A stretch of 35,091 nt of DNA from a virus (taxonomy: Duplodnaviria; Caudoviricetes): IMG/VR virus record IMGVR_UViG_3300049070_000074, positions 1 through 35,091 of that record; one strand, given 5' to 3'. Positions 1 to 32,355 of the stretch are shown here, in pieces. A program made the position numbers and the translations under genes. Each line of letters begins with the position of its first letter. The first letter of the stretch is position 1. The notes below the pieces were generated by a model, which was given only the letters and a program-made list of their open reading frames with translations, was not told the origin of the DNA and made no database searches.

Positions 1-441
1 GCGGCTGATGGCGGTGATGACGGCTAGCGGGTCCGCGGTGACGTCGATGATCTCGCCGCCCGGATGCCGGCGTGCGAGGACGCGGTCTTCCCAATGCGGG
101 ATGACGCCGAGCGGGATGTCGGGGACGATGGGGTTCTTGATGAGTAAGGGAACCAGCAGACCTGGGTCGCCATGCACCGGCGCCACTCCGCTGAGTCGTC
201 CACGGAGCGCAACGACATTCGCCGCAGACAGGTCAACGTGGTCAGCCTTGCGAGCCTTTCCGGTGCCGAACACCGTCCCCTTCCATCCACGCGGCAAATG
301 GGTCAGGACCGAGCCGCACATCACCAGGTCGGCTTGCTTGGCCGGTGTCCATTCCGCCTTCTGGCCTAGCAGGCGCTCGATCAGCAGAGGCGTGAGGGCA
401 TCGCCGAAGTTCGGATGGCCTATCCACCAGTAGGCTCTCAC
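1..441 (-). CDS. Polysaccharide pyruvyl transferase (ExoV-like), 3' end truncated by the window edge
   Basis: Not in the ORF track. Translating from GTG 441 (GTGA overlap) gives MRAYWWIGHPNFGDALTPLL...MCGSVL...VFGTG...ALRGRLS...HGDPGLL...LGVIPHW, open to base 1. The NFGD, GS, RG, DP-LL and IPH motifs are typical of this family. Confidence 0.8.
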   Translation of the reverse strand, partial: MRAYWWIGHPNFGDALTPLLIERLLGQKAEWTPAKQADLVMCGSVLTHLPRGWKGTVFGTGKARKADHVDLSAANVVALRGRLSGVAPVHGDPGLLVPLLIKNPIVPDIPLGVIPHWEDRVLARRHPGGEIIDVTADPLAVITAISR

Positions 442-545
442 CGCACGCCAGTCCCGAGATAGACCCCGCAACAGAAGGCGGCCAGGATGAACAGGACGAT
501 GGAGGCGGCCTGGAACAGGAGGCCGATGAAGCGGTCGACGTTCAC
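438..545 (-). CDS. 35-aa single-TM membrane protein
   Basis: MNVDRFIGLLFQAASIVLFILAAFCCGVYLGTGVR; GTGA overlaps at both ends. Confidence 0.6.
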   Translation of the reverse strand: MNVDRFIGLLFQAASIVLFILAAFCCGVYLGTGVR

Positions 546-766
546 GTCGGTTCTCCCAGCTCGGCGGACGTGAAGGTGGCCCAGACGGTCGCCTCGAAGT
601 CCTTGTCGCTGATCCGGCGCAGTTGATCGTTCGACGCCGCAAAACCGCGGCCGATACGTTCGCGTGCCTCGCTGATAGCGTTATCGCTATCGGAGTGCTG
701 CCGCAGGAAGGTCCACAGGACGATGGCGGTGCCGGCGGCGAAGCCAGCGATGGCGGCGAGCTTCAT
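542..766 (-). CDS. Small protein with an N-terminal membrane anchor
   Basis: MKLAAIAGFAAGTAIVLWTFL...; ATG 766 overlaps the upstream TGA. Confidence 0.65.
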   Translation of the reverse strand: MKLAAIAGFAAGTAIVLWTFLRQHSDSDNAISEARERIGRGFAASNDQLRRISDKDFEATVWATFTSAELGEPT

Positions 767-1035
767 GGTGCTTCTTGCTCGCGGAGTACCAACGTCTCCT
801 CCGCAGGAGCCTCGATGCTCGGCGCTGCCAACTCGCGCACCTCGGCGCACCAGCGGCAGTAAATGAAGCCCATCGACTGCTCGCCGTCCCACGCAGAAGC
901 GGCGCGGAAGTTGTGCGGCGGGCACGTCTCGTCAACAGGCTTAGACATGGCCACAATCAGTTCGACCAGCTCGGCCCGCGTGTGTTCGCCTATCAGTTCG
1001 CGGATGGTGTCGTCGGCCGACTTGCCCTTACTCAT
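763..1035 (-). CDS. Hypothetical protein with CPPH...CxxC zinc-binding motif
   Basis: ORF track; translationally coupled to both neighbours. Confidence 0.65.
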   Translation of the reverse strand: MSKGKSADDTIRELIGEHTRAELVELIVAMSKPVDETCPPHNFRAASAWDGEQSMGFIYCRWCAEVRELAAPSIEAPAEETLVLREQEAP

Positions 1036-1321
1036 CGTCTACCTCGTCGTGGCTGCCGGGTGGACAGGTATCGCGGAACACCTTGTGCAGCGGGCAGATG
1101 ACCGCGGTGGGGCGGCGGGCGAGCTTGGCGGAGTCACGCTGGCGGCGCCAGGCGGTGAAGTCGCCTTTGCTGGCGGGGTGGTCGTTCATCCATTGCTCGT
1201 GGTCCCGCAGGTCGCGGTTCTGCCATGCCCACAGCAGGGCGATGACGACGAGCAGCAGGATCAGGAAGAAGTCTCGGGATTGAATGATGCGGAGCAGGTC
1301 GTGAACGCTGTCATACGGCAT
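1028..1321 (-). CDS. Hypothetical membrane protein
   Basis: Likely start MPYDSV at 1321; TM segment FFLILLLVVIALLWAW. Confidence 0.6.
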   Translation of the reverse strand: MPYDSVHDLLRIIQSRDFFLILLLVVIALLWAWQNRDLRDHEQWMNDHPASKGDFTAWRRQRDSAKLARRPTAVICPLHKVFRDTCPPGSHDEVDDE

Positions 1322-1349
1322 GGCCGCACCCCAGCCGGCCCCCCACCTC

Positions 1350-1368
1350 TTGACAGGGGTGGTATCAT
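1350..1368 (+). promoter_or_regulatory. Extended -10 promoter (TGG-TATCAT, 1360-1368) with TTGACA at 1350-1355
   Basis: Direct sequence match; predicted start near 1375 coincides with the first hairpin of the leader. Confidence 0.5.
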
Positions 1369-1400
1369 GTAGATGGTTGGTAGAAGCAACCGATTTGATT

Positions 1401-1439
1401 ACCCGGTTCCGTGCTTCTACCACGGGGCCGGGTTTTTGA
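1401..1439 (+). terminator. Intrinsic terminator / attenuator in the leader of the plus-strand cassette
   Basis: 13-bp stem ACCCGGTTCCGTG/CACGGGGCCGGGT (two G-U pairs on +), loop CTTCTAC, followed by a T run. Confidence 0.7.
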
Positions 1440-1451
1440 TTGGAGTCGACA

Positions 1452-1607
1452 GTGACGACCGCGACCGAGAAGTGCACCCAATGCGGTGGCCCGATGGTGA
1501 TTGAGGTCATCGACGGCAACGACCACGAGTCGTGGGTCTGCCCGAACGACGCGACCGCGTGGGCGGTCGATCAGGAGTGGGCCAACGAGGAGGTGTGGGA
1601 TGACTGA
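1452..1607 (+). CDS. 51-aa zinc-ribbon-like protein
   Basis: GGAG 6 nt before GTG; MTTATEKCTQCGGPM...WVCPND...EEVWDD; below the ORF-track cutoff. Confidence 0.6.
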   Translation: MTTATEKCTQCGGPMVIEVIDGNDHESWVCPNDATAWAVDQEWANEEVWDD

Positions 1608-1815
1608 GCGGACATGGGACCCAACGGACGGTTGGCCCCTGCCTCTGGCCGATGGTCAACCTAAGCGCCGACGACTAACCATCACATGCGTATGCGGGCA
1701 TGAGTTTTCATCCCACCGGCAAGATCCGAACGATCCCTGGGTAGCTGAACGCTGCAAGACCTGTGGGTGCGCCGCCTTCGACGACGGGCGACCCTCAGAT
1801 GACGAGGACGACTAG
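1600..1815 (+). CDS. 71-aa Cys/His-rich zinc-binding protein
   Basis: GGAGG before ATG 1600; CVCGH..SH...CKTCGCAAF; its stop overlaps the convergent stop in CTAG at 1812-1815. Confidence 0.65.
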   Translation: MTERTWDPTDGWPLPLADGQPKRRRLTITCVCGHEFSSHRQDPNDPWVAERCKTCGCAAFDDGRPSDDEDD

Positions 1816-2831
1816 AGCCGGATCTTGTACTGGGCACTCACCACGCCCTTCTCGACGTCCACGAAGTGCAGGCGCTGGGAAGGCTCGGAGGACGTTCCCA
1901 GCCCGTCGCGGGCGTAGCGGTTGTCGCTCTCGGTGGAGCCGGTCTGATACCAGGCGCCGGAGCCGTCGGCCATCGCCCATTCGTTGTGGGTGTGCTTGTG
2001 GCCGGTGTAAGCGTCGCGGAAGTCCCAGCCGAAGGCGCCGGCCTTGAGCCGGTTCAGGTAGTTCAGGAAGGTCCGCTCGCTGACGAAGCCGTTGCGGCCT
2101 GTCTCGTCGCCGTGGAGGCTGATGGCGCGGTAGTTGCCGATCTCGACGCGCTGGATGTCCTCGGGGCAGTCCTGCCAGGTCAACCGGGTTTCGGCTGACA
2201 GCAGCTGGCGGGCTGTCTCGTAGCACATGCGGTCGAAGTTGTCGGCGCGCGGCACGCTGTCGCGCTTACTGCCTATGCGACCGTGGTTTCCCCACTCGGG
2301 GATGACCTGCACCCGCTCGTAGATGCCCAGCGCCCGCTGGACGACTTCACCGACCAGCTTGGATACGCTGGCCCATTGGGCGAACAGCGTGGCGTCCACC
2401 TCGAACGCCTGTGCTGGGAACTGAAAGAGGCCCTCCAGCATATCGCCGCCGAACAGGATGACCCCATCCCGCACCGGGTGGTCGGCCCGCTGGATCTCAG
2501 TGATCCGCTCGGCCTTGTCGACGAAGCGGTGGACCCGCTGGCGCATGACCTCGCTGTTGTAGGACGTGGTGAGCTTCCCGCCTTGCCAGTCGGTCAGGTG
2601 CCACAGCGCGGCCTCGATGCCCTTGCTGCGGGTGTCCGCCTTGGGCTTGCGGGTGGCCGGCGCGGTGAACTCCACCACCAGGGCGTCGTGGGCGGCCCGG
2701 TAGGTCGCCGCGACGAGATCTTCGGTCTTGGCCTTGGCGCGAGCGAGGTCGCGGAGCGCCCGATTCAGCGCCTCTCGCAGTTCCTCGTCGGCCAGTTCCG
2801 CCCTAAGCCCGTCCACAGCTGCACGCCCCAT
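1812..2831 (-). CDS. Calcineurin-like metallophosphoesterase
   Basis: Motifs HLTDWQ, GGDMLEG, GNHG, LHGD, GHKH. Confidence 0.85.
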   Translation of the reverse strand: MGRAAVDGLRAELADEELREALNRALRDLARAKAKTEDLVAATYRAAHDALVVEFTAPATRKPKADTRSKGIEAALWHLTDWQGGKLTTSYNSEVMRQRVHRFVDKAERITEIQRADHPVRDGVILFGGDMLEGLFQFPAQAFEVDATLFAQWASVSKLVGEVVQRALGIYERVQVIPEWGNHGRIGSKRDSVPRADNFDRMCYETARQLLSAETRLTWQDCPEDIQRVEIGNYRAISLHGDETGRNGFVSERTFLNYLNRLKAGAFGWDFRDAYTGHKHTHNEWAMADGSGAWYQTGSTESDNRYARDGLGTSSEPSQRLHFVDVEKGVVSAQYKIRL

Positions 2832-3069
2832 TTCGATGGCGCGTGACCGGGTTGTCGGTCATGGAGAACCCGTGCAGCTTCATCAGCCGGTAAACCTGGC
2901 TGTGCTGCAACCCCTTGTCGTCGACTATCTCGATCCAGTCCTCTGGACCGCTAGCGCATGCCTTGTGGTTGGCGTGTGTCTCAGCACACGGCTTGGACTG
3001 GACGAACGTCTTGACCGAACACTCGCCACCGTTCTTACCCGGTGGCGGCAGCTCGTCTCGCAAACTCAT
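2803..3069 (-). CDS. Small Cys-containing putative DNA-binding protein preceding the phosphoesterase
   Basis: Start MSLRDEL at 3069; ends RHRNGACSC. Confidence 0.6.
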   Translation of the reverse strand: MSLRDELPPPGKNGGECSVKTFVQSKPCAETHANHKACASGPEDWIEIVDDKGLQHSQVYRLMKLHGFSMTDNPVTRHRNGACSCGRA

Positions 3070-3251
3070 TACGCCGCCTTGTCTTTGGTCGCCTCGTACA
3101 CGATCTTTGCTAGGCACTGGCTGCAGACAAGGATCTCGATGCCGGGTTTGAGGGTGTAGGCGTAGCCGAGTCGGTCCACCCATCCCACCACGCGGCGCTC
3201 CTTATCGGTGATACACCAGCTCATGCAGTTGCGGCACTTGGCGCGGGCCAT
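3069..3251 (-). CDS. 60-aa zinc-finger protein
   Basis: CRNC...CSQC. Confidence 0.55.
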   Translation of the reverse strand: MARAKCRNCMSWCITDKERRVVGWVDRLGYAYTLKPGIEILVCSQCLAKIVYEATKDKAA

Positions 3252-3678
3252 CGGACAACGCCGTATCAGGCAGAGCAGTCGCCGGCGTTACGGTGACGTG
3301 GAACAGGCCGCGTGACCTCATCCCCCATAACCCCAGCCGGTGAAGCGTCGCCGGATCCAGGTCCACCAGTCGCTGCCGGGGTGTCCCGGTGTAGCAGTCG
3401 CAGTACATCGTCGGGGTGACGACCACCGAACGCCCAGTGGACCGAGCGGTAATCCGAATCGGTTGGCAGGTTGTCCAGGGATAGACGCAGTCGTTCCGAG
3501 CCACGCCGGGCCCCTGCCACCATGAAGCCAACCCGTCGCCGTAGATCTCGCAGCCTGCGATTCCCGTAGGCGCCCATGATGGGTTGACCTCGATGCTATG
3601 GCACCCTCCGAGGGCGCCGGTTGGTTCCGTTAGCAGCAGTCCTGCCGCTAGAAGTAGTGCGACTATCAGCCGCTTCAC
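3202..3678 (-). CDS. Secreted RlpA-like double-psi beta-barrel protein (lytic transglycosylase/expansin-like)
   Basis: Signal peptide; GLASWW, TGRSVVV, RLVDLDPATLHRLG motifs. Confidence 0.65.
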   Translation of the reverse strand: MKRLIVALLLAAGLLLTEPTGALGGCHSIEVNPSWAPTGIAGCEIYGDGLASWWQGPGVARNDCVYPWTTCQPIRITARSTGRSVVVTPTMYCDCYTGTPRQRLVDLDPATLHRLGLWGMRSRGLFHVTVTPATALPDTALSDGPRQVPQLHELVYHR

Positions 3679-3936
3679 TCAGACGGTGGTGGTGGCCGGA
3701 GGCTCGGAGTCCTGAATTCGGACCTCGGTGCCCGCCGGCAGCGTTGGTGCGGCGACCGGCGTGACCTGCGAGCGGGTCAACAGGACCACGCCGAGCAGGA
3801 TGACGGCGTTGCCGAAGGCAACCAGTGCAACTTGGATCTCGGTGGACAGGCCCGGAATCAGCAGCGCCGCGAGGGCGACGCCGGTAGAGAGGACGCCGCC
3901 GAGAGCGACGTTGATGGCAACTGGCTCGGTGTTCAC
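3679..3936 (-). CDS. Holin (2 TM)
   Basis: Two hydrophobic helices, EPV...RSQVTPV signature, directly after the endolysin. Confidence 0.7.
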   Translation of the reverse strand: MNTEPVAINVALGGVLSTGVALAALLIPGLSTEIQVALVAFGNAVILLGVVLLTRSQVTPVAAPTLPAGTEVRIQDSEPPATTTV

Positions 3937-4745
3937 TATTCCTCCTGAATCTGTGCGGCGAGTTCCTTGATGGCGCGGATGCGGCGGAGCAGGCGCGGCA
4001 CGCGGGCCGCCTCTTTCTCCAGCTCCTCGACTTGGGCGAGCAGGTCAGCGTTCTTGGCGCGCACGCGGCCGAGTCGCTTGTGACACAGCTCCAGCGGGGA
4101 GAGGCTGTCGGCCGGTTCCTCGGCAGGCAGCGCGTTCAGCGCGGCCAAGAGCTGATCCCGTCGGGAAGGACTGCCGTTGACGAAGCCTGGGTCGTCCAAC
4201 CACGGACGCCAGCAGTAGGGCTTGTTGGGGCCGGATATCTGGTGGTGGTCGATGAATCCCGTCTTGTCGCGGGGAATGTCGGCGCCGTCGCGGGCGACTG
4301 AGTCGTTGCGGACGGTGACGCCAGCGGCGCGGATCTTGGCCGGGTCGCCGCTGGCGAGGATGACTTGCAGGTCCATGCTGGCCTGCCATATCTCTTCGGT
4401 AACGACGCCGCGGTTGGCGGCGCCACCGTCCTCATGCTCGATGGTCCAGGTGTACAGGTTGGGGTTGACGTTGGGGATGAGGCCGGGCCACGTCGGGTCG
4501 CGGACGTCGCCGTTAGTCCACGCCGAGTCGTCAAGGGCCACGAACTGCCAGATGACCAGCTTGCCCTGCTCGTTGTGGCCGATGCCGAAGTGGCTCGAGG
4601 CGTTGCTGGTCGGGTTCATGAATCGGTCACGCGCACTTGTCAGCGTGCCGACGATGCGGTGGTTGACGATGGCCTTGGTCGGGTAGCCCGATGGACCCTT
4701 CCAGAAGTTGGGCGACGGCTTCCAGATGACGGGCGGAAGGGTCAT
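3936..4745 (-). CDS. Endolysin, N-acetylmuramoyl-L-alanine amidase (Amidase_2) with a C-terminal coiled coil
   Basis: PSPNF, IVNH, ASSHFGI, AWTNG, NPNLYTWTIEHE, HHQI...KPYC; start MTLPP at an ATGA overlap (4745). Confidence 0.85.
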   Translation of the reverse strand: MTLPPVIWKPSPNFWKGPSGYPTKAIVNHRIVGTLTSARDRFMNPTSNASSHFGIGHNEQGKLVIWQFVALDDSAWTNGDVRDPTWPGLIPNVNPNLYTWTIEHEDGGAANRGVVTEEIWQASMDLQVILASGDPAKIRAAGVTVRNDSVARDGADIPRDKTGFIDHHQISGPNKPYCWRPWLDDPGFVNGSPSRRDQLLAALNALPAEEPADSLSPLELCHKRLGRVRAKNADLLAQVEELEKEAARVPRLLRRIRAIKELAAQIQEE

Positions 4746-4855
4746 TCGTGCCTCATCGCCCACTGGCCAAGCCGATTGTTCAGTAACCAACAGGCGCCGG
4801 CGTGACCCAGAGCGGCACAGGCGTACATGAGGATGGCTTCGACAAAAGGCTTCAT
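4742..4855 (-). CDS. 37-aa hydrophobic peptide
   Basis: MKPFVEAILMYACAALGHAGACWLLNNRLGQWAMRHE; GAGGT upstream; fills the gap exactly. Confidence 0.5.
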   Translation of the reverse strand: MKPFVEAILMYACAALGHAGACWLLNNRLGQWAMRHE

Positions 4856-4857
4856 TG

Positions 4858-5292
4858 CTACCTCGGGTCGCAGAACAGTTGGACGCCGTACATGGCGCCG
4901 TCAGGGGCGACGTAGATGGCCGCTCCCATGCGTCGCCAGCCAGTGCCCAGCATCAGGGCGCGGTGGGTCGGTGAGTTCTTCCAGGCTTCGATGAACCACG
5001 CCACCCGCTCGCCGTAAGGCAGCGCCGGTTTGCGGTAGGCGAGGTTCTCGCCGCCGACCTCGCAGTGTGTCTGGTTGACCCACTCGAAGCTGTGGAAGAA
5101 GCCGTCGCCCACGATCTGGCGGGCGCGGCGGTGGGCGAGGCGGTCAAGGTTGTCGTTGGTCCGCAGCGGCCGCAGGTCGTGGTCGACGCGGAAGGCGTTG
5201 GTCCGGCTGACGAGCCAGTCGTGGGCGTAGGCCGGTTGGGCGGCGGTCAGGAGCAGGACGGCGGCGAGGGCCGCCGCCAGCAGACGACGCAT
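4858..5292 (-). CDS. Secreted CAP (SCP) domain protein
   Basis: Signal peptide AxA; NAFR...LRPL, FFHS, GENLA, WKNSPTHRALML, YGVQLF. Confidence 0.9.
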   Translation of the reverse strand: MRRLLAAALAAVLLLTAAQPAYAHDWLVSRTNAFRVDHDLRPLRTNDNLDRLAHRRARQIVGDGFFHSFEWVNQTHCEVGGENLAYRKPALPYGERVAWFIEAWKNSPTHRALMLGTGWRRMGAAIYVAPDGAMYGVQLFCDPR

Positions 5293-5295
5293 TGG

Positions 5296-6309
5296 TCAAC
5301 TCGGTAGGTCGATGGTCAGCCAGTCGATCTCGATGTGGCCTTGGTTGTCCGGCTCAGGGATGGTCTGCCCGGCCAGGTAGGTTTCGGTCTGGAACACCCA
5401 ATACGAGGTATCGGTCGTCACGCCGGAGGTGGCGTGTAACACGGTCACCCCGTCGAGGATGAAGTCCACGAACTGGCCCGGCTTGACGTGCATCCGGTAC
5501 TCATGCCAGTCGTTCAGGTCGATGCACAACGCCTTGCCGTTCTGCTGGGTGGACGACTCGAGGTGGTGGAACGCATTGCCCTTGCAGGCGCCGCCGTCCA
5601 GTTTGCCCTCGACGAAGTTGTCCTCGCAGTAGCCGGGGTCGCCGACGCCAGGACCGCACCAGCGCAGCACCGCGACCTTGCGACCCGGGATGTCATCGAA
5701 GCGGGCGGCATAGGTAACCACGAACTCGTCCTGGTCAGGCAGCGTCCACTTCGGGCCGCTGACGTAGTTGCAGCCGCCCGAGCCGTTGTGGACGAAGGTG
5801 AACCCCGACGTCTTGCAGGATCCGGTTTCGGTGTGGTGCCAGATGTCGAGGATGCCGTCGTGCTCGGATGTGGTGGCCTTCCAGCAGTACTTGCCACGGC
5901 CCGAGCTGTCGTTGTAGGTGCAGTCGCGTGCCGCGTCGGGGCGGGGCTGCAGGACGGTGGCGGTGTTGCCGGTGGGCAGCTGGCCGAGCGGCTGGTTGCC
6001 ACAGAAGTCAGCCAGGCCGTCGCGGACATAGCCGCTGATCGTCCCGCGAATCTGGATGCCGCTGGCGTTGCAGCCTGCCGGGGCCGGCGTGGGCTCCGGA
6101 GTCGGGACAGCGGTGGGCACCGGAGTCGGAACCGGCGTCGGGATGGGCGTGGGCACGGATGTGGGCGTCGGAGTCGCGTGCGGCTTAGCGCGCACGATGA
6201 CTTCCTGACCGGGTTCCAGCTCTACGGTCGGAACCGGGTCAACGGCGAAGGTGGTCAACGGAACAGCGACCACGATGCCGGCGAGGACGCCCGCGATGAA
6301 GCGGGACAA
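5296..6309 (-). CDS. Secreted protein with a Pro/Thr linker and a GH16-like (ConA/LamG fold) domain
   Basis: Signal peptide; PT repeats; EDNFVEG (compare ExDxxE); [19 protein letters not shown]; GGAGG before TTG. Confidence 0.6.
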
Positions 6310-6415
6310 CAGGGCGCCTCCTTGCGTCAGGCGCTAAGAAGGACGGCCACGCAAGGGCCGCCCTTCGGGAGAATCCTGCCGCGCTTGCGTCGCGGCGGAA
6401 AGCCGTACTTTCGGG
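6310..6415 (-). promoter_or_regulatory. Structured leader with three hairpins whose loops are mutually complementary
   Basis: mRNA loops in order: ACGCAAG, CUUGCGU, GACGCAAGG; the third hairpin overlaps GGAGG. Confidence 0.65.
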
Positions 6416-6685
6416 CTAGGGAGTGACGGGTTCGACGAGGAAGGAGCAGTCCACGTCGGCGACGTTGACGTGCGGGTAGGGGTCGCGGATATCGAGGTCG
6501 GCCAGGATGTCGTGAAGCATGGTGTTGGTCAGGGCGGAGTAGCAGCGGGACTGCTCCGCGCGCTCGCGAGACTCGCCGCCGAGGACCAGCGACAGCAGGA
6601 GAAGCAGGAGCAGCGTGACCACGGCGGTCAGCACGGCGAGGGCCAGCGGACCGGCGATGTAGGCGGCGACGGCGCGAATAGTCAT
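6416..6685 (-). CDS. Membrane protein (N-terminal TM, two Cys) in the lysis region
   Basis: Long hydrophobic N-terminus; ATGA coupling. Confidence 0.65.
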   Translation of the reverse strand: MTIRAVAAYIAGPLALAVLTAVVTLLLLLLLSLVLGGESRERAEQSRCYSALTNTMLHDILADLDIRDPYPHVNVADVDCSFLVEPVTP

Positions 6686-6870
6686 GGCTTCAGGGCCATT
6701 TCGACTAGGCCGCGGATATCTGAGGACCTGTAGCGATCGGGGTCACTCAGGATGTCGAGCAGGAGATTGGTCAGCCGATCCTTCTGCCCTTCGGTCAGGT
6801 CGTCCTCAGACAGAAGTCGATGACCGGCAAGCTGGTAGGCGGCGGCCAGAATCTTCTTGGAGTGGCTCAT
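6682..6870 (-). CDS. Hypothetical protein
   Basis: ATGA overlaps at both ends. Confidence 0.6.
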   Translation of the reverse strand: MSHSKKILAAAYQLAGHRLLSEDDLTEGQKDRLTNLLLDILSDPDRYRSSDIRGLVEMALKP

Positions 6871-7097
6871 AGCAGGCCGATGCCTTTCCCGATGCCAGCC
6901 GCGGCCAGCAGGCCGGCGGTGATGGCGTAGACGCGCAGCTCCAGGCGGTCGATGCGAAGCCCCTGGCTGGTTTGGGTTGGCACGATGACCTTCTCCACGG
7001 TGACCTCGATGCCAGCCAGCCGCTTGTCTACGTCAACGAGCTTGTCGTAGATCTGCTGGTTGGTGACGCGGACTCCGTTGGTGTGTTCGTCGGGCAT
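6867..7097 (-). CDS. Coiled-coil protein with a C-terminal TM (XhlA/holin-accessory-like)
   Basis: IYDKLVDVDKRL...RIDRLE followed by a hydrophobic tail; first gene of the late operon. Confidence 0.65.
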   Translation of the reverse strand: MPDEHTNGVRVTNQQIYDKLVDVDKRLAGIEVTVEKVIVPTQTSQGLRIDRLELRVYAITAGLLAAAGIGKGIGLL

Positions 7098-7300
7098 GAC
7101 GAGGCTCGCCCCTCGCTGAAGTTCGATGCTGCGTAGGGGCAGCGGATGGGTAAAGTGCAGAGGTCAGGTCGGTCCTGACGGCGCGAGGAGAAGCCGCTGG
7201 AGAAAATGCCAGCGGCTTCTTCGTTCGGCAAAAAGGGTAGGCGAAGCCTAGAGGGTGCGGCGGAGCAGGAGCGGCCTGCCCGGCGGGAGGATTCGCTTGA
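7098..7300 (-). promoter_or_regulatory. ~200-nt highly structured late leader / possible sRNA
   Basis: Six hairpins, the largest AGAAGCCGCTGG/CCAGCGGCTTCT (7189-7220); no credible ORF. Confidence 0.6.
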
Positions 7301-7304
7301 CCGG

Positions 7305-7327
7305 AGTATAGCGGTCGCGACTGTCAA
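7305..7327 (-). promoter_or_regulatory. Late promoter candidate TTGACA-N11-TATACT
   Basis: Near-consensus hexamers at the head of the lysis operon; spacer abnormally short. Confidence 0.55.
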
Positions 7328-7343
7328 GTGTGGCGTGATTGCG

Positions 7344-7472
7344 TCATCGACCGCAGCGCGCGCAGTAGCGTCCGAACGCGACCTGCGCAGGCTGGTTGAA
7401 CCGCTGCACCACGTCATATGCCGGTCGCCACTTGTGGCCGATAAACCAGCAGATGATTCGCTGCCGCTTCAC
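7344..7472 (-). CDS. 42-aa DUF1660-like phage protein
   Basis: ICWFIGHKW...CARCG pattern; GTGA overlap. Confidence 0.6.
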   Translation of the reverse strand: MKRQRIICWFIGHKWRPAYDVVQRFNQPAQVAFGRYCARCGR

Positions 7473-7720
7473 GCCACGTCCTCCTTCCACGAACCGTGCA
7501 GCCGGATCATCCCCGGCCGGTACAGCGTCATCCTGATCGGCACCCCGCAAGCGGCGCAGATGTAGCAGGGGCCGACGTCGCGCTCGATGACCTCGCCGCT
7601 GTTGACGTGCGCGCCGGCGCAGACATCGTAGGCCAGGCTGGTGGCGATGTTCAGCGGGGTCAGCGTCATGGCGGCGACGCGGCGCGCCTTGCCGTGGCTG
7701 TCGATGCGGAGGCCGGTCAT
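7469..7720 (-). CDS. Hypothetical zinc-binding protein
   Basis: C...H...CAACG; coupled at both ends. Confidence 0.6.
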   Translation of the reverse strand: MTGLRIDSHGKARRVAAMTLTPLNIATSLAYDVCAGAHVNSGEVIERDVGPCYICAACGVPIRMTLYRPGMIRLHGSWKEDVA

Positions 7721-8319
7721 GGAACGTCAGTCCCGATAGGTTCTCGGACTAGAGGTTGGGAGTCCGCGGAGTCGCTGATCTTCTTCCCACGCTTGTCGGT
7801 TGACGGACTTCCATCCTTCGCAGCCCTCCGCCTCGTCGTAGCAGGGCCTGACGACCCGCCCGTGTCGTCGGAGCCAAGCAACAGTGACCCCCGACCGCTT
7901 GGCGTATTGCCGTTCAAAGTCGTCTGCAGTAATGCGAGGCCATCGCGCTTTGGCTTCCACTTGAAGTCTCCTGCGTCCCATGCATCGTAGTGCGAGAACG
8001 GCAGGAAGTAATAGGTGCCGTCCTTCGTACGAGCCACGAGTTCTGTCTGATAGCGGTGCTTCTCGCTGAAGTACTGGGGATCTTCGCGCTGAATGATGAG
8101 GATGGTGACTTCCTGCCCGTGAAGCTCCGTCCAGTCGTAGTGACGGATGCGCTCATGCTCCTCGAACTCGTGGTCCCTGAGTGCTAACCAACCATCGTCT
8201 GTCTGTGGATACCGGACGTCGCAGGACCGGCAGGCGTGATAGATCCCATCATCCGTGAACCAGAACGATTGACCACCGGGGCCTTCCAGGTCGTCAATCG
8301 TGTGCGGCAAAGTTTTCAT
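7717..8319 (-). CDS. Hypothetical protein (CxxC...H..H N-terminus, low-complexity C-terminus)
   Basis: ATG 8319 at an ATGA overlap. Confidence 0.55.
   Translation of the reverse strand: MKTLPHTIDDLEGPGGQSFWFTDDGIYHACRSCDVRYPQTDDGWLALRDHEFEEHERIRHYDWTELHGQEVTILIIQREDPQYFSEKHRYQTELVARTKDGTYYFLPFSHYDAWDAGDFKWKPKRDGLALLQTTLNGNTPSGRGSLLLGSDDTGGSSGPATTRRRAAKDGSPSTDKRGKKISDSADSQPLVREPIGTDVP
7727..7981 (-). CDS. Small phage protein nested in another frame of 7717-8319
   Basis: FERQYAKRSGVTVAWL...PC...CEGW reads as a globular phage protein; start uncertain. Confidence 0.55.
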   Translation of the reverse strand: MGRRRLQVEAKARWPRITADDFERQYAKRSGVTVAWLRRHGRVVRPCYDEAEGCEGWKSVNRQAWEEDQRLRGLPTSSPRTYRD

Positions 8320-8903
8320 GCGGCGTTCCTCCGGCACTGCATGCAGTCCTCCTGGTGCAAGCCCTCGAGGGCGTGATGCTCATGCTCTGGCGCCAGCCAG
8401 TCGTGCCGCCCGCTGTCGCTGTGGACCTTCTCGCTGGCGCGCGCCTGCAGCTCGTCGATCTTCTGCTCGATGCGGTGCAGGGCGCGGTGCAGGGTCGGCT
8501 CCGTCCTGACGGGGTCCACCCACAGGTCGAAGCAGGCGCGGGTGTACGCCACGTCGAAACGGCAGACCGCGCTTACCAGCGCGTAGCACAGCGAGCCGCG
8601 CCACTCCGGTCGATGCCAGTGGTCGCTATGCCGACGGCGGCACTCTTGGCGCAGCGCTTTCAGCCCGGCCGACCAGTAGAAGGTGCCGAACGACTCATCG
8701 AGGAACCGCTCAAAGGGGTGGCTGAAGGGCACGCCGATGCCGAACTCCCCGTCGCGCTGGTGCAGGCGGGCGATGGACACCTCAGCGTGGGCCAGGAGGC
8801 GATGCAGCGCGATCCGCGGGGCCAGGGGCAGCTGCGGTGCTGACGCTTCGGCATCCAACTGCTCGGGCGACTTGTCTACGCGGGTCATCGGCTGGCGTCG
8901 CAT
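8316..8903 (-). CDS. Hypothetical protein, candidate late-transcription regulator
   Basis: Lies after the resolvase and before the late promoter (Q-like synteny); Cys/His motifs. Function inferred from position only. Confidence 0.45.
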   Translation of the reverse strand: MRRQPMTRVDKSPEQLDAEASAPQLPLAPRIALHRLLAHAEVSIARLHQRDGEFGIGVPFSHPFERFLDESFGTFYWSAGLKALRQECRRRHSDHWHRPEWRGSLCYALVSAVCRFDVAYTRACFDLWVDPVRTEPTLHRALHRIEQKIDELQARASEKVHSDSGRHDWLAPEHEHHALEGLHQEDCMQCRRNAA

Positions 8904-9382
8904 CAGGCGGCCTCCTTCTGGCCGACGTGGAGGGCGATGAAGTCCTCAATGTCCATGACCACATAGGCCCGCCGGCGGTGGCCGGCGCCTGGGGTATCGG
9001 TGACGACCAGCAGGGCGGTCTGCTGACCCTGGACGGTCAACCGCTTCAGCTCGGTCCAGTACCGCTCGGTGAAGTAGCCGCCGCTCTTGACCTGCACAAC
9101 CCACGGGTCGTCGGCCGCGCCGCCATCCTCAGCTGCCCCATACATGCCGACGCGCTTGATGCCGAGCAGGTTGCAGACCCAGCGCTCGATGGCGTTGCCC
9201 CTCGAGCGGTTGTTGCGGCCTCGGCGGGTTGATTCAGTGGACACGAAGGACGAACAGCGAGGACAGAGGTAGCCCTGCACGTCACCCGTCGTGGAATCGA
9301 ACACCGGGGTCCGAAGGGACTTGTCGGCGAGGTGGCGGCACTTACGAGGCGTGTGGCCGGGATGGAATAGCTCAGGGGTCAT
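8903..9382 (-). CDS. Holliday junction resolvase-like PD-(D/E)XK nuclease with an N-terminal zinc finger
   Basis: RGNAIERWV...EDG...VQVKS...LLVV...YVVMDIEDF; CRH...CPRC. Confidence 0.75.
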   Translation of the reverse strand: MTPELFHPGHTPRKCRHLADKSLRTPVFDSTTGDVQGYLCPRCSSFVSTESTRRGRNNRSRGNAIERWVCNLLGIKRVGMYGAAEDGGAADDPWVVQVKSGGYFTERYWTELKRLTVQGQQTALLVVTDTPGAGHRRRAYVVMDIEDFIALHVGQKEAA

Positions 9383-9801
9383 GCTGCCCTCCCAGCCTCG
9401 CAAACGGCGCAGTTCGGATGGCGTCCGTCATGCAGTGCGTTAGCACCTTTCTCTTCTCTTCTCTTCTCTTCTCTTTTAGGCAATGCGTCCGGCACTGCGT
9501 CCCGCAGTGCGTATCGGCTGCGCGCCGCAGTGCGCGCCGCAGTGCTGCGCCTATTGCGTTCGGCATCCAATCCGCGGATCCGGTAGCAGTCCGCCTCGTC
9601 GACGATCAGCAGCCCGTTCTCCTGCAGCGCCCGCAGGGCGGCGCCGTTCACGCGGGGCAGCGGCGGCCGGTCCGGCCAGAACTTGTCGGCCAGGACCAGC
9701 AGGCGGACGAACAGCGCCAGCTGCGCGTCGCTGCGCCACAGCGTCGGGTACTCGTTCATCAGCCGGTGGTACACCCGCGAGTAGACGTGGCTGTCGGTCA
9801 C
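9379..9801 (-). CDS. Replication initiator-like protein
   Basis: Helical N-terminal domain (LALFVRLLVLAD), Arg/Ala linker carrying DNA repeats, EEKRREEK segment; GTG at 9801. Confidence 0.65.
   Translation of the reverse strand: MTDSHVYSRVYHRLMNEYPTLWRSDAQLALFVRLLVLADKFWPDRPPLPRVNGAALRALQENGLLIVDEADCYRIRGLDAERNRRSTAARTAARSRYALRDAVPDALPKREEKRREEKGANALHDGRHPNCAVCEAGRAA
9432..9546. repeat. Putative replication origin: GCA(G/C/A)TGCG iterons plus a (CTCTT)5 tract
   Basis: Copies at 9432, 9480, 9492, 9504, 9527, 9539; CTCTT x5 at 9451-9475. Confidence 0.6.
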
Positions 9802-9953
9802 TTCTTGTCCGCCTGTTCCTTGTGACACCTGTCGCAGATGGCCACGGTGATGCCGGCCGGTGTGACATGGGGATGGCGCACCTCGTCACCAGGCAGCCAC
9901 CGGGCACAGCGGTAGCAGCGCCAGTCGTCCCACTGAGGCGTGCGCTTTGTCAT
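9798..9953 (-). CDS. 51-aa zinc-finger protein
   Basis: MTKRTPQWDDWRCYRC...ICDRCHKEQADKK; below the track cutoff; GTGA-coupled to the initiator. Confidence 0.6.
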   Translation of the reverse strand: MTKRTPQWDDWRCYRCARWLPGDEVRHPHVTPAGITVAICDRCHKEQADKK

Positions 9954-9957
9954 CGGA

Positions 9958-12183
9958 CTACAGCCGACCAATCGGCGGGAAGTCGGCGGTGATCTTCTTC
10001 ATGTCGCCCTTGTAAGCGACGATGATCTTCTGCTCCCGCTTGGGGAACTTCCGCATGTCCAGCGTTTTCTTGGCCTGCGCCAGCCTGGTGAACTCAGCCT
10101 CGAGGTAGACGATCTTGTTGTAGACGCTCAGGCCGTGGTCCTTCATCCATATCTCGGTCTCGGCCTCGTGACAGTGATAGGCACCCTTGGTGTCGCGGCT
10201 GTCGCCGGTCATCACCACGAAGAAGCGGTTGTTGGCCAGCCGTGACAAGGCCACCTCGTAGCCAGCGAACAGGGTGTCGCGGAACTTCTCGTATGTGGAC
10301 AGCGCGTTGATCTCGCCATCGGGAATCTCGCCGTCGTAGTCGACGTACCGCTCGACGCGGTAGTACGGCGGACAGGTGAAGATTAGGTCGAACTCCTCGC
10401 CAGGGTCGTAGGTGGAGCTGTCAGCCTTTACCCACTTGACGTTCTCGAACTCGGAGCACAGCGCGTTGTTGGCGTCCACCTGGTTCTGTCGGATCTCGCT
10501 GGCCAGATAGCCGTAGCCGCTGGCGCCGGTCACGTAGCCGAACTGGACACCGCCACCGAATGGGTTGTAAACCTTGCCGCCGTCGGGAGTGAAGAACCGC
10601 AGGATGACCTCGCAGGCCACCGGGTCGAGGACCGAGGCGTTGCCGTTGTGCGACCGCCCTGTCACCACGTTGGCGAATCCCTGCTCACCCTGCCAGCATC
10701 CCTCACGGCTGGCGAAGGATGGGTTGGGGATTCCCTCGCGGACGCCGGCTTCCTCGATGCGGTCCTTCCATTCGCCCTTGAGGCGTAGCCAGTCTCCCTT
10801 GGTGCTGTTCCACACGTTGGTCATCGAGATGTGCGCCAGCGTCTTGCGCCGATGCACCGCCGGGTCGCCAGCCAGCATGTAGTGGAAGCCCGACATCTGT
10901 AGGTACGTCTCGAACCCCAGGCTGTTGAACACCGCCGGTGTCTCGAACTTGCTCTTTGGGTTGGTGGTCATTAGCGCCGGATAGCCCGCGGTGTTGGCTG
11001 CCAGCACCTGCTCGGCCATCGCCCGGTACAGCTCAGGCGTGTAGTGCTCCGGCTCGATGACCGACTGCAGCAAGCAGAACTCCCCGACCTTTTCGTTGAC
11101 TTGGAAGGTAAAGAACCCGGCGAACTTGCCACCAACCAGCAAAATGATCGCCGAGTGGATCTGCATGTTCTTGCGGGCCGCCCGGTGGGCGATGCCGTCC
11201 TCGAGCGCCAGCTTGGCAACGTCGGCCTCGAACCCCGAGCCGATGACCGACTCGACGTAGCGGAACTCATAGTCGCCGTCACCGTCGATTAGTGAAGGCG
11301 ATGGGTCGTCGGCTTCCTCGAAGCCGGGCAGGTACACCTGGTCGATCATCTGTAGCTCCTTCTTGGGTGGCTGTAGTGCTCCGCACTGATCGGGGCATGC
11401 GGCACACGAACCTAGATACACGTCCGGCTTGTGTAGTGAAACAAACGTTCCGCCCACACTGTCCGGCCGATTGGTGGCCCGAATATCCCCGTTGAGTAGG
11501 TGGGGATTGTTCGGGGAAACACGTAGCGGATTATCGATAACTGGCGGTAGGGTCAGCAGGTAATCCTGCTTGGCCTTGGCCGCCCTCCCCCATTCCGTAT
11601 CACCGTAGTCCGCGGTCACTACGCGGTTGACGCTGCGGATCCCAAAGTCACGCAAGCGTTCGTATTGACGCACCCGATGGCGCAGTTCCGCGTCGGTGTC
11701 AAAGCCGCTGGTCGAGGTGTTGACCACCACATCCAAGTCCAATAGTTGGCTGATGTGGTCATCGGTCAGCGGTATCCAATGCTTGGTAATGATGACGGCG
11801 GTCATCTCGGCGCGGCGTAGGGCGCGGATAACCTTGACCGTCTGGTTCCAGTCGTGGCACGGATCGCCCATCACCCCGATGCGATACCAAGTAGCCGGGA
11901 AGGCGCGCAGTTGTTTGACGATGGTGTCCCGGTGCTCACGCCAGTCGGTGAAACCGCGGGTAACGCTCTGAGCGAAGTCGTAGCCGTAGCGTGAGGCAAC
12001 GCGCTGGGCGTAGCAGTCGTCATAGCAGCCGTGCTCCTTGCGCGCCCGCATGCCCATCGTGCAGCCCTTGACGGTGTCCACGTCGATAACGCCCTTGAGG
12101 TTTACGGTGGCGGTGATGGCGTCGTGGTATCGGATGGGTGTTCGCTCGATGTTGAACAGCCTTTGCTGCCCGTGCTTGCTCAC
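9958..12183 (-). CDS. Fusion: radical SAM-like domain, GNAT-like domain and amino-(N4/N6) DNA methyltransferase
   Basis: GCx11Cx3CYA, RIGVMGDP, IITK (radical SAM-like); LLVGGKFAGFF..FCLLQSVIEPE..FNSLGF (GNAT-like); NPFGGG and FTCPPY (MTase). Start GTG 12183 at a GTGA overlap. Confidence 0.75.
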   Translation of the reverse strand: MSKHGQQRLFNIERTPIRYHDAITATVNLKGVIDVDTVKGCTMGMRARKEHGCYDDCYAQRVASRYGYDFAQSVTRGFTDWREHRDTIVKQLRAFPATWYRIGVMGDPCHDWNQTVKVIRALRRAEMTAVIITKHWIPLTDDHISQLLDLDVVVNTSTSGFDTDAELRHRVRQYERLRDFGIRSVNRVVTADYGDTEWGRAAKAKQDYLLTLPPVIDNPLRVSPNNPHLLNGDIRATNRPDSVGGTFVSLHKPDVYLGSCAACPDQCGALQPPKKELQMIDQVYLPGFEEADDPSPSLIDGDGDYEFRYVESVIGSGFEADVAKLALEDGIAHRAARKNMQIHSAIILLVGGKFAGFFTFQVNEKVGEFCLLQSVIEPEHYTPELYRAMAEQVLAANTAGYPALMTTNPKSKFETPAVFNSLGFETYLQMSGFHYMLAGDPAVHRRKTLAHISMTNVWNSTKGDWLRLKGEWKDRIEEAGVREGIPNPSFASREGCWQGEQGFANVVTGRSHNGNASVLDPVACEVILRFFTPDGGKVYNPFGGGVQFGYVTGASGYGYLASEIRQNQVDANNALCSEFENVKWVKADSSTYDPGEEFDLIFTCPPYYRVERYVDYDGEIPDGEINALSTYEKFRDTLFAGYEVALSRLANNRFFVVMTGDSRDTKGAYHCHEAETEIWMKDHGLSVYNKIVYLEAEFTRLAQAKKTLDMRKFPKREQKIIVAYKGDMKKITADFPPIGRL

Positions 12184-16709: not shown

Positions 16710-16921
16710 GCAGCCACCGAGCCTTCATAGACTGCCGCGGCAAACCGCTCGTCATGGCAGCTGCACCGCTCGTTGTCACACCATTCGCATCGGACGTTTG
16801 GCTCGCCGCGTTCAACGGCCAACCACTCGCAGGAACAGGTGGAACAGGCGTATTGGCAGAATCCAAAGTAGAGATGCCACGACGCCTCGACGCCGATGGG
16901 CTGCGGAACCTTGATCGTCAC
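16706..16921 (-). CDS. Cys-rich small protein
   Basis: Multiple CxxC motifs; GTGA coupling. Confidence 0.5.
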   Translation of the reverse strand: MTIKVPQPIGVEASWHLYFGFCQYACSTCSCEWLAVERGEPNVRCEWCDNERCSCHDERFAAAVYEGSVAA

Positions 16922-17643
16922 GGCAACGCCTCGCGTCCCACCGCGCACATGCGCTCCAGCAGGTCCTCGGCGGAGGCCGTCAGCTCCTTGACCGTCTCGG
17001 CGAGCGCCGCATCAATCAGCGGGCGGGCGGCCTTGTACGCCGCGTCGTACTGCGCGCTATAGCCCTTCTTCTTGGAAGCGGCGGCCCGAGCGGCGGCCCA
17101 AGCGGCGGCCCGAGCGGCGGCCCAAGCGGCGTCCCAAGCGGCGGCCCGAGCGGCGGCCCAAGCGGCGTCCCAAACGGCGGCCCAAGCGGCGTATGACGCT
17201 TTGCGGGCATCGTCGATGATCGGCTGCGCCCGTCGCGCGAGGTCCGTGCTAGTCAGCTCATTGAGTCCTCGCAGCCTGATGGCGTGCTCGGTCAGCCCAG
17301 CCTTGTCCAGCCAGGTCGGGGTGAAGGTCCGCACCAGCCAGTCGGTCGCCAGCCACACACGCCGCTCCTCGTCGGCCGGCGTGGTGCGCGTCTCGATCAT
17401 GGTCGGGATAAAGCGCTTGAGCCGCTGTCGCTCGGTATCGGGCAGCGAATCGTTCCAGGACCGCCCGAAAGCGGCGATCACCGGCGACACGCATTGCGGA
17501 GCATCGCTGAACGGCTGGCCCTGAACGTAGGACACGGCCTCCAGCAGGCACATCCCCTTCTCCGGGGACGAGTGCCAACCGGACTCCAGCTTCAGGCCCC
17601 GGATGAAACTGCGCCAGTTCTTGAGGCGCGGGGTGGCAGTCAT
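16918..17643 (-). CDS. Phage protein with AAW/AAR tetrapeptide repeats
   Basis: MCLLEAVS...FSDAPQCVSPVIAAFGRSWND N-terminal domain; repeat region. Confidence 0.75.
   Translation of the reverse strand: MTATPRLKNWRSFIRGLKLESGWHSSPEKGMCLLEAVSYVQGQPFSDAPQCVSPVIAAFGRSWNDSLPDTERQRLKRFIPTMIETRTTPADEERRVWLATDWLVRTFTPTWLDKAGLTEHAIRLRGLNELTSTDLARRAQPIIDDARKASYAAWAAVWDAAWAAARAAAWDAAWAAARAAAWAAARAAASKKKGYSAQYDAAYKAARPLIDAALAETVKELTASAEDLLERMCAVGREALP
17077..17196. repeat. 10 x 12-bp tandem coding repeat (AGCGGCG[G/T]CCC[A/G])
   Basis: Read directly from the sequence. Confidence 0.9.
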
Positions 17644-17654
17644 GTTTGCTCCAG

Positions 17655-17837
17655 TCACGTCGACCACCCGAGCCACAGCAGGAATGGGATGCCGAAGAAC
17701 AGAGCCAGGAACACCACCACACCCAGCACGATCTCGCCGCCGTCCTTGGCGTGATCCCTCCAGCTGGCCTTGTATGGCGCGGCCTGCTGATACATCGGGT
17801 GGTAGGCGCGGCAACGGCGACAGTAGCGACCGTTCAC
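17655..17837 (-). CDS. Small protein with CxxC and a C-terminal TM
   Basis: GTG at 17837; hydrophobic tail. Confidence 0.6.
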   Translation of the reverse strand: MNGRYCRRCRAYHPMYQQAAPYKASWRDHAKDGGEIVLGVVVFLALFFGIPFLLWLGWST

Positions 17838-18013
17838 GCTGCGTCCTCCGGCGTCCACTCGGACATGTCCTTCGGCGGCAGGCCCTTGGTCTGCATCCGC
17901 TGGATCCAGACGGGCTTGCGCTCCCGCCGGAACGGGATGACAACGCCGCCGCTGACCGGCTGGCGGTGCTTCTTCTCGATGCGGTCGAGGATGGGTGTAG
18001 GGCTTCCGTTCAT
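17834..18013 (-). CDS. Hypothetical protein
   Basis: MNGSPTP... from an ATGA overlap. Confidence 0.55.
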   Translation of the reverse strand: MNGSPTPILDRIEKKHRQPVSGGVVIPFRRERKPVWIQRMQTKGLPPKDMSEWTPEDAA

Positions 18014-31218: not shown

Positions 31219-32355
31219 CTACGCAGTGCGCTTCCACATGCGGACGGTGATGTACGGCGGCAGGTTGCTGCTGGTGGAGTGGGCATCCACGGCGGCCCCG
31301 GACAGGGTGTGCGTGTGAGCTGACCCGGCCGCCGTGGTGCCCGTTGCAACACCGCCGGTTGGGTTGGCGGTGGACAGGCCGGTCGCTTCCGAGCCTGAGG
31401 TTGAGGTGTCCTTCAGCGCCGGGAAGCCAATGACTCCGCCGGTAATGGCGGTGTTGATGTTCTCGACGTGGACGTGGTTGGGAACCTGGGTGTAGGTATG
31501 GGTGTGCGCCGACTCGTTGGCAGCTGTCGGTTGCGTCACCGAATGGTTGGAATGGGAGTGCGTCTTGGCGCCGCCCGTCTCCTCGTCGGTGTCGAAGTCG
31601 GTATCGCTGCCGTTGAAACCGACCAGCATCCGACCAGCACCGAAGGCTGACCACGTACCGTAACCCAGTAGAGTCGCTGGGTTTGTACTGACCACCGACA
31701 GGAAGATGGAGCCGACCGGAAAGGCTTGGGCGGCGCTGCCATCCTGTCCGGCCGGCCCTTCTGGCCCGGTGTCACCCGTATCGCCCTTGGGGCCTTGTGG
31801 TCCGACGTCTCCGGTATCACCCTTCGGTCCCTGCGGACCCGTATCTCCGGTGTCGCCCTTGACGCCTTGCTGGCCTGCCGGACCTTCCGGACCGGCCGGG
31901 CCTTCGGCACCGGCCGGTCCCTCCGGTCCCTGGGGGCCACCTGGACCCTCGGCGCCTACTTCTCCTTGCGGTCCCTGCGGGCCAGTGTCACCAGCAGGCC
32001 CTTGTGGCCCCGTAGAGCCAGTCGCACCAGCAGCTCCATCCGCTCCTGTCGCTCCCTGTGGACCTTCCGGTCCCTGCGGTCCGGCAGGGCCTTGGCTACC
32101 GGCAGGCCCAGCGGGTCCTTCGTTCCCTTGTGGCCCTTGCGATCCGGTGGCACCTGTGTCTCCCTTGTCGCCCTTGGGTCCCTGCGGGCCGGGTGGCCCC
32201 ACCACCCCGCCACTGGCATCGTCAACGGCATTACCGGGAAGGGCCTGCGTGTCTTCGTAGCCAAGGGTCCGCAGGCTCGGCTCGCCAGGCGGCCCGTCTA
32301 CGCCGAGCCGCTCAAACCACAGTTGTCGGAACTTGCGACGAGACCGCTGACTCAT
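31219..32355 (-). CDS. Collagen-like fibre protein with a T4 gp10-C-like terminal domain
   Basis: About 51 uninterrupted Gly-X-Y triplets, then FPVGSIF...[11 protein letters not shown]...GRMLVG...TGGAKTH...[15 protein letters not shown]. Confidence 0.85.

Follow-up and report, generated by a model that had tools for sequence, protein, structure and literature searches.

Three predicted RNA hairpins with mutually complementary loops ahead of a GH16-fold gene in an uncultured tailed phage

What might three hairpins be doing in the spacer ahead of a phage gene, when the loop of the middle one can pair with the loop of either neighbor and the last one covers the ribosome-binding site (RBS)? The window considered here, i.e. 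the whole stretch of DNA analyzed, is a 35,091-base virus record from an uncultured HK97-like tailed phage that encodes a terminase, a portal, a protease-capsid fusion and a tape measure protein, with nearly all genes located on the minus strand; the best match of the terminase to actinophages is 29%. The three-hairpin spacer comprises 107 bases between an 89-aa gene (stop 6416) and a 337-aa gene (TTG 6309), which is followed by the genes for a CAP-domain protein and then an amidase, and we interpret this region as probably the lysis/late block of the phage. Throughout the text, X denotes the loop heptamer and X' its complement, and the features of the region are as follows.

6416..6685, minus strand: upstream gene, 89 aa, with a hydrophobic N-terminal half of the membrane type; its TAG stop lies 20 bases before H1
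6398..6412, minus strand: H0, a weak hairpin (-4.0 kcal/mol) directly after the stop, which competes with a 3-bp extension of H1 and lies in the stretch kept in run X5, one of the sequencing runs compared below
6396-6378, minus strand: H1, 6-bp stem, loop X = ACGCAAG (6390-6384), -12.7 kcal/mol alone; the proposed decoy
6366-6338, minus strand: H2, 11-bp stem, loop X' = CUUGCGU (6355-6349), -21.8 kcal/mol alone, with a terminator-like shape and a short U tail
6334-6314, minus strand: H3, 6-bp stem, 9-base loop GACGCAAGG containing X (6327-6321), -10.7 kcal/mol alone
5296..6309, minus strand: downstream gene, proposed to be regulated; TTG start, 337 aa, hydrophobic N-terminus, Pro/Thr linker and GH16-fold domain

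Several other features of the window were recorded in passing. A non-coding leader of ~200 bases (7300-7097, minus strand) lies ahead of the late block and contains a strong hairpin at ~7220-7189 and a small U-tailed hairpin at 7250-7238. A 12-base unit is repeated ten times at 17052-17216 within a 341-aa ORF (16918-17943). The gene at 31219-32385 (minus strand) carries a collagen repeat, resembles Gp10-like tail/baseplate genes and has the portal gene on one side and the protease-capsid gene on the other; a promoter-like box comes after it.

The sequence-only reading that drew attention to this locus described three minus-strand hairpins with loops X, X' and X, a single mismatch in the middle stem that becomes a G-U pair on that strand, a middle loop complementary to both flanking loops, and a third hairpin overlapping the RBS, and all of this is present in the sequence. 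The G-U pair is located at 6361/6343. The loops of H1 and H2 are complementary at 7/7 bases, and the H3 loop matches X' over 8 bases; computed as free strands, the X1:X' duplex has -10.4 kcal/mol and the 8-bp X3:X' duplex -13.0 kcal/mol. The Shine-Dalgarno (SD) sequence AAGGAGG (6323-6317) is positioned 7 bases before TTG 6309; the H3 loop takes up four of its bases and the H3 stem the other three. The linkers measure 11 bases between H1 and H2 and 3 bases between H2 and H3, all three loops falling within 83 bases, and prefix folding of the growing RNA makes the hairpins appear in 5'-3' order. The three stems are unrelated and only the loops match, so the element is not a plain tandem repeat. 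H2 folds at -21.8 kcal/mol on the minus strand versus -18.2 on the plus strand, the G-U pair favoring the former by 3.6 kcal/mol, whereas H1 folds 1.1 kcal/mol better on the plus strand; the evidence for the strand is therefore thin. A scan of the sequence for tRNA and tmRNA returned nothing.

Could such an arrangement arise by chance? To count as a triple, three hairpins had to have stems no shorter than 5 bp and loops complementary over at least 7 bases, and we applied this rule to 574 dinucleotide shuffles of one strand and to 179 loci (2.66 Mb, both strands). The real sequence has one triple per strand, namely the X/X'/X element, and none was found in the 574 shuffles or in the 179 control loci; when the required complementarity was lowered to at least 6, a triple appeared in 16/574 shuffles. 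The three-hairpin element is real, and chance is excluded. The overall folding energy of the region is ordinary for its GC content (z -1.14), and genome-wide the heptamer is not enriched (6 seen versus 5.1 expected), its other three copies lying in coding frames and lacking comparable stems. A shared start-associated motif was rejected, since ACGCAAG precedes no other listed start.

Part of 5200-7500 is present in five sequencing runs, one of which is a possible source of the record; the other four were aligned with a cut-off of 80% identity. A 545-base contig of run X5, obtained in another study (record 30), matches 6314-6426 with 5 other letters in 113 positions (108/113 kept), and both of its flanks beyond 6314-6426 fall below the cut-off. 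Upstream this contig reads as the end of another gene, and downstream as a similar N-terminus (19/27 bases, counted by hand). Both flanking genes are covered by six further X5 pieces at 84-91% similarity; these come from separate contigs with less depth, perhaps those of other phages. In run X2, several contigs carry the GH16-like gene, record 7 also with upstream genes, and none covers 6201-6354 at 80%. This gap in X2 counts against the switch proposed below, as does the fact that no covariation of the loops was seen. The single X5 contig is the only evidence for the apparent conservation of the spacer.

Wider searches did not recover a family, and the absences at related loci and in pattern scans weigh against the proposed switch. 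The element is missing from all seven loci of more distant homologues (L115-L119, L147, L148); at L115/L116 the upstream stop is accompanied by a lone SD hairpin. Scanning viral contigs with four patterns returned 26, 8, 4 and 30 stretches, and no instance with three good stems; 80 loci of the nuclease encoded at 1812-2831 (904 kb) gave 13 loop-pair rows and no triple; 23 terminase loci, mostly fragments without the spacer region, contained no relative of the element; and cultured phages and plasmids yielded only short chance matches, none longer than 31% of the query. A covariance model built from one sequence found nothing below E 2 except itself in 60 sources (859 kb). Among 151 genomes, 5 had hits at E<=0.05, about the number expected by chance; all of these hits match the H2 stem only, and the three-hairpin pattern did not occur in the 151 genomes. 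The unpublished genome G011 (L186) is not used as support for any conclusion. A locus in an unrelated phage of 50% GC (L012 1485-1600, minus strand; the same element with 1 difference in 600 bases in L025) has X, X' and X heptamers between a stop codon and the next RBS, probably between two tail-region genes, with a bulged H2-like hairpin, the same RBS letters and ten bases shared with the 5' arm of H2. It was set aside as a relative and is regarded as a doubtful analogue, because its X1 follows the stop codon outside a good stem and the covariance model missed it.

The view that the spacer holds a selected RNA structure over the RBS is supported by the shuffle statistics, by the near-equal alternative folds described below, and by the one relative that keeps the spacer with changed flanks. 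We consider selection on the RNA structure probable.

The product of the downstream gene had been labelled GH16-like from its letters, and the fold is borne out by matches of the predicted structure. The model of the 337-aa protein (pLDDT 81.9) has its best solved-structure matches among GH16 glucanases, with a Foldseek E-value of 3.8e-11 to 3dgt, an endo-1,3-beta-glucanase, and its comparison with a structure atlas likewise gave the GH16 fold (TM 0.73); the protein received no Pfam or PHROG call. Among 35 matches there are 19 clear homologues besides the protein itself, mostly unnamed, and E229 and E234 are invariant in their alignment. Relatives were found in metagenomes (4/340) and genomes (2/51), and in viral contigs among none of 8 candidates and then, using the alignment, among 1 of 20. 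The usual GH16 motif is E-x-D-x-x-E. In this phage-borne family of secreted-type GH16-fold proteins, whose N-terminal modules are variable, it is replaced by E-D-N-F-x-E. The 89-aa upstream gene could not be assigned to a family and had no homologue except itself among 11 candidates.

The start of the GH16-fold gene differs from those of the neighboring late genes in that it is not overlapped by the upstream stop. It also uses the weak start codon UUG, and both traits speak for the switch proposed below. An in-frame stop 27 bases upstream of TTG 6309 leaves no alternative ATG or GTG. Read-through of the upstream stop into the GH16 frame was rejected, as the upstream frame stays open until about 6240 and is not the frame of 6309. 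To open the region from the SD to the start takes a computed 10.2 kcal/mol. This value, within the range of 22 other starts of the genome (2.8-17.4), counts against the switch, although many of the other starts overlap an upstream stop.

Pseudoknot-free folding of the spacer gave three folds within 0.8 kcal/mol. Fold A (-56.8 kcal/mol) consists of the three hairpins. Fold B (-57.0 kcal/mol), which differs from A by 0.2 kcal/mol, has the loop and 5' strand of H2 paired with a stretch that comprises the H3 loop, the SD and the following spacer as far as UUG. In fold C (-57.6 kcal/mol), the start region is paired with the 3' strand of H1; since the X5 contig has other letters at those bases, this fold was set aside. 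The value computed for fold B is 0.30 at 50 C and climbs to 0.80 at 15 C. The reverse complement of the 5' half of H2 matches the RBS region at 15/18 positions and the H1 region at 13/18, and among all 256 possible four-base spacers 4.3% stabilize fold B as well as the real one. Fold B owes its extension to four spacer bases; read by hand, the X5 contig has other letters there, and at best G-U pairs remain, which speaks against the switch. A nested fold with X1:X' paired has -45.6 kcal/mol, 11 kcal/mol worse, so X1 would reach X' only via a loop-loop kiss, which ViennaRNA cannot score. The nested-path barrier from A to B amounts to 26.8 kcal/mol, so fold B would need loop-loop nucleation, a point that counts against it. 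A further argument against a switch is that a tetraloop capped by C-G (GCAA in the case of H1) can form within each loop and would make the loop less prone to pairing.

On these grounds we propose a cis-acting translation switch on the late mRNA, in which H1 serves as a decoy for an extended anti-RBS formed by X' and the H2 stem strand; we judge this reading to be evenly balanced between right and wrong. Since X3 overlaps the SD, pairing of X' with X3 would close the site (OFF), and pairing of X1 with X' would be permissive. H1 and H2 would be transcribed first, their 7-base loops would kiss, and X' would thereby be sequestered. With X' tied up, H3 would keep AAGG in its loop and the start codon would be free, which would be the permissive state; given that H3 alone is stable enough to repress, this state may be only leaky. 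Once released, X' would pair with X in H3 (8 bp, ~2.6 kcal/mol stronger) and zip into fold B, burying the site. The predicted outcome is that newly made mRNA is translated for a short time and that a strongly transcribed operon yields the cargo protein at a low and fixed level. An outside trigger, such as an upstream ribosome, temperature or a protein, might shift the balance. By a rough estimate, the 11-base linker can span the H1-H2 kiss, whereas the 3 bases that join H2 to H3 would suffice only if the base of H2 frays, which leads into fold B. With a gap of 3 bases, a side-by-side kiss of H2 and H3 is probably a nucleation step for the longer duplex rather than a stable end state.

The sequence-only reading also reported the same design with unrelated sequence at 1375-1437. 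The geometry of H1 plus H2 is indeed repeated there in unrelated letters, but the element has two hairpins instead of three, neither of which contains an RBS, and the second one is a classical plus-strand terminator.

1374..1438, plus strand: two-hairpin element in which 8 bases separate a 6-bp hairpin from a 13-bp, U-tailed terminator; the 7-base loops are complementary (11 bases with flanks)

Its loop centers are 34 bases apart, compared with 35 for H1-H2. In its nascent RNA, an 11-bp antiterminator-type helix (-19.8 to -22.8 kcal/mol) is favored as long as the terminator is unfinished; no comparable helix forms for H1-H2. The element precedes the only likely plus-strand genes, two small Cys-rich ORFs at 1440-1815. 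On the opposite strand, a weak hairpin pair (1367-1322, minus strand) with loops CCACCCC and GCUGGGGUG is positioned just before ATG 1321; its 6-base complement may be due to chance. Intergenic boxes of the type CTTGACA...TATCAT occur at 1350-1368 (plus strand), with TATACT as the second part at 7327-7305 (minus strand) and TATAAT at 31209-31185 (minus strand), each ahead of a gene block. Their spacers are 7, 11 and 13 bases, respectively, versus the standard 16-18, and standard promoter scans identified no promoter in the whole genome.

Does the three-hairpin element belong to a described class? An Rfam search gave 2 matches at E<=5 in the whole record, and a search of 6200-6520 gave 3 matches at E<=10; none of them came near its gathering score, and none was to P4 CI, C4 or IsrK. 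The guanidine-II riboswitch has two identical conserved ACGR tetraloops and is associated with guanidine-related genes. The element is distinguished from the riboswitch by its complementary 7-mer loops, its different gene context (PMC5558903) and the lack of an Rfam match. A likeness to seqA/seqB/seqC of phage P4 had been suggested as well; it applies to the layout and goes no further, there being no immunity operon and no Rfam match. The P4 CI RNA lies between two sites of one transcript and is complementary to both (PMC4825925), and the C4 antisense RNA of P1/P7 has the same X/X'/X layout in phage DNA (PMC8198154). In both systems the middle part is a processed small RNA of an immunity operon, acting in P4 on termination. 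In the present case the middle part is a 29-base hairpin, all sites are hairpin loops, and the operon is of the late/lysis type, its neighboring genes encoding the GH16-fold protein, the CAP protein and the amidase rather than immunity or antirepressor functions.

Closer in mechanism is the repZ leader of the IncI-alpha plasmid ColIb-P9, where an intramolecular pairing opens the SD, the competitor is the trans-acting Inc RNA, and the stop of a leader peptide lies in the masking hairpin (PMC4705826). The two share one loop with two competing partners, one of them in an SD-masking hairpin, and a weak start codon (GUG in repZ, UUG here). Unlike in repZ, the X':X3 pairing would close the SD (the computed forced fold pairs both SD and spacer), the competitor is a hairpin in cis, the upstream stop (6416) is 82 bases from the start of H3 (6334), and the downstream gene encodes a GH16-fold protein and not a rep protein. 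The proposed timing resembles that of the MS2 maturation-gene leader, in which an upstream anti-SD strand held in a metastable hairpin allows a short translation window before the closed fold forms (PMC4615214). MS2 is, however, an RNA phage, and its leader uses a long-distance helix in a cloverleaf, with no complementary loops and no decoy. IsrK of Gifsy-1 combines a leaky terminator in a structured leader with its own promoter and activates in trans, and its short and long forms could pair (PMC4825925); here no promoter was found, termination is only putative, and Rfam gives no match. As proposed, the element would work like the P4 CI, IncI repZ and MS2 leaders; it belongs to none of them and is uncatalogued in Rfam. 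In the literature searched we found no publication describing the three-hairpin design, and it was not found in bioRxiv 10.64898/2026.10.21.760802. The terminator loops described in PMC11979758, which likely act without pairing, were considered and do not match the design. Four motifs of the element are absent from the supplements of the phage RNA catalogue PMC10690425 as far as these are searchable, and this catalogue may still contain the design.

Three other explanations have to be weighed against the proposed switch. In the main rival, the H1 loop gates H2, which serves as a pause hairpin or a weak intrinsic terminator, while the role of H3 is limited to masking the RBS on read-through RNA; RNA ended at H2 might also pair in trans with H3 of the read-through RNA. 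The stem of H2 is GC-rich (8-bp core, -15.0 kcal/mol) and followed by UUCUU, near-identical stems with U-rich tails, found among the H2-only hits of the covariance model, occur in two genomes of the actinobacterial phylum between convergent genes (L190) and behind a gene end (L187), and the element at 1374-1438 combines the same geometry with a clear terminator. Trans pairing would in addition remove the problem of the 3-base linker, and it has a precedent in the action of short IsrK on long IsrK (PMC4825925). Yet the H2 tail UUCUUAGC has 4 U among its first 8 bases and H2 is absent from the terminator scan list; its terminator score is -7.4 versus +24.0 for 1402-1432, under an E. coli rule. 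An X1:X' fold that is 11 kcal/mol worse and a nascent RNA that keeps H1 argue against a classical antiterminator, no promoter was found near H1 (0 of the sigma-70 type in 1-10500, in a scan that also misses the boxes at 1350 and 7327), and the amidase and further lysis-type genes lie downstream of H2. On balance we regard a terminator-based explanation as unlikely.

The shared letters of the loops could alternatively reflect sites of one protein, either RNA hairpins that combine a C(GCAA)G cap and a bulged A (with H2 contributed by an antisense RNA) or ACGCAAG boxes in double-stranded DNA. Translational operators of the bulged-A hairpin shape exist, such as the MS2 coat operator, and A-C-GCAA-G is indeed common to all three hairpins if H2 is read on the plus strand. 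But the minus strand is the one that gives H2 its more stable fold, and there the loop reads X' and not X; a DNA site would need no hairpins; the arms differ between the sites, unlike those of recombinase or repressor sites, with neither conserved arms nor recurrence observed; and the unenriched heptamer lacks such stems at its other three copies. Protein binding is accordingly improbable as the explanation. It is also quite unlikely that the element is a relic of a local inverted duplication, in which a terminator-like hairpin and an SD-masking hairpin share letters by descent and mark a module boundary with no switching. The RBS region recurs, inverted and degenerate, in the 5' half of H2; simple anti-SD stems and single hairpins whose loop is GCAAGGAG are frequently met (L115/L116, L028); and no family of the element was found, all of which would fit a relic. 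A relic is less easily reconciled with the centering of the same heptamer in three unrelated stems, with 96% identity in a relative with changed flanks, or with the presence in this genome of another, independent element that repeats the geometry.

The proposed cis switch can be extended to a broader reading, which we advance tentatively and hold to be rather doubtful: the element would be a self-contained, protein-free RNA timer made from a terminator-shaped hairpin whose loop meets first the upstream decoy loop, allowing translation, and next the SD loop, shutting it off, a portable module that phages swap between genes, and part of a wider undescribed class of hairpin-plus-terminator kissing leaders, with 1374-1438 as the second member in this genome.

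The known X/X'/X controls of phages and plasmids need a separate antisense RNA, whereas here all parts are present in cis within ~90 bases. If the proposed switch is correct, the element would provide a compact model for the control of translation by the order of folding and by loops that compete for the same partner, and its swappable 7-base loops would make it a part for synthetic control. It would link the three-hairpin leader to two-hairpin terminator leaders such as 1374-1438. For the phage itself, it would explain a low output of the cargo glycanase from a strong late transcript.
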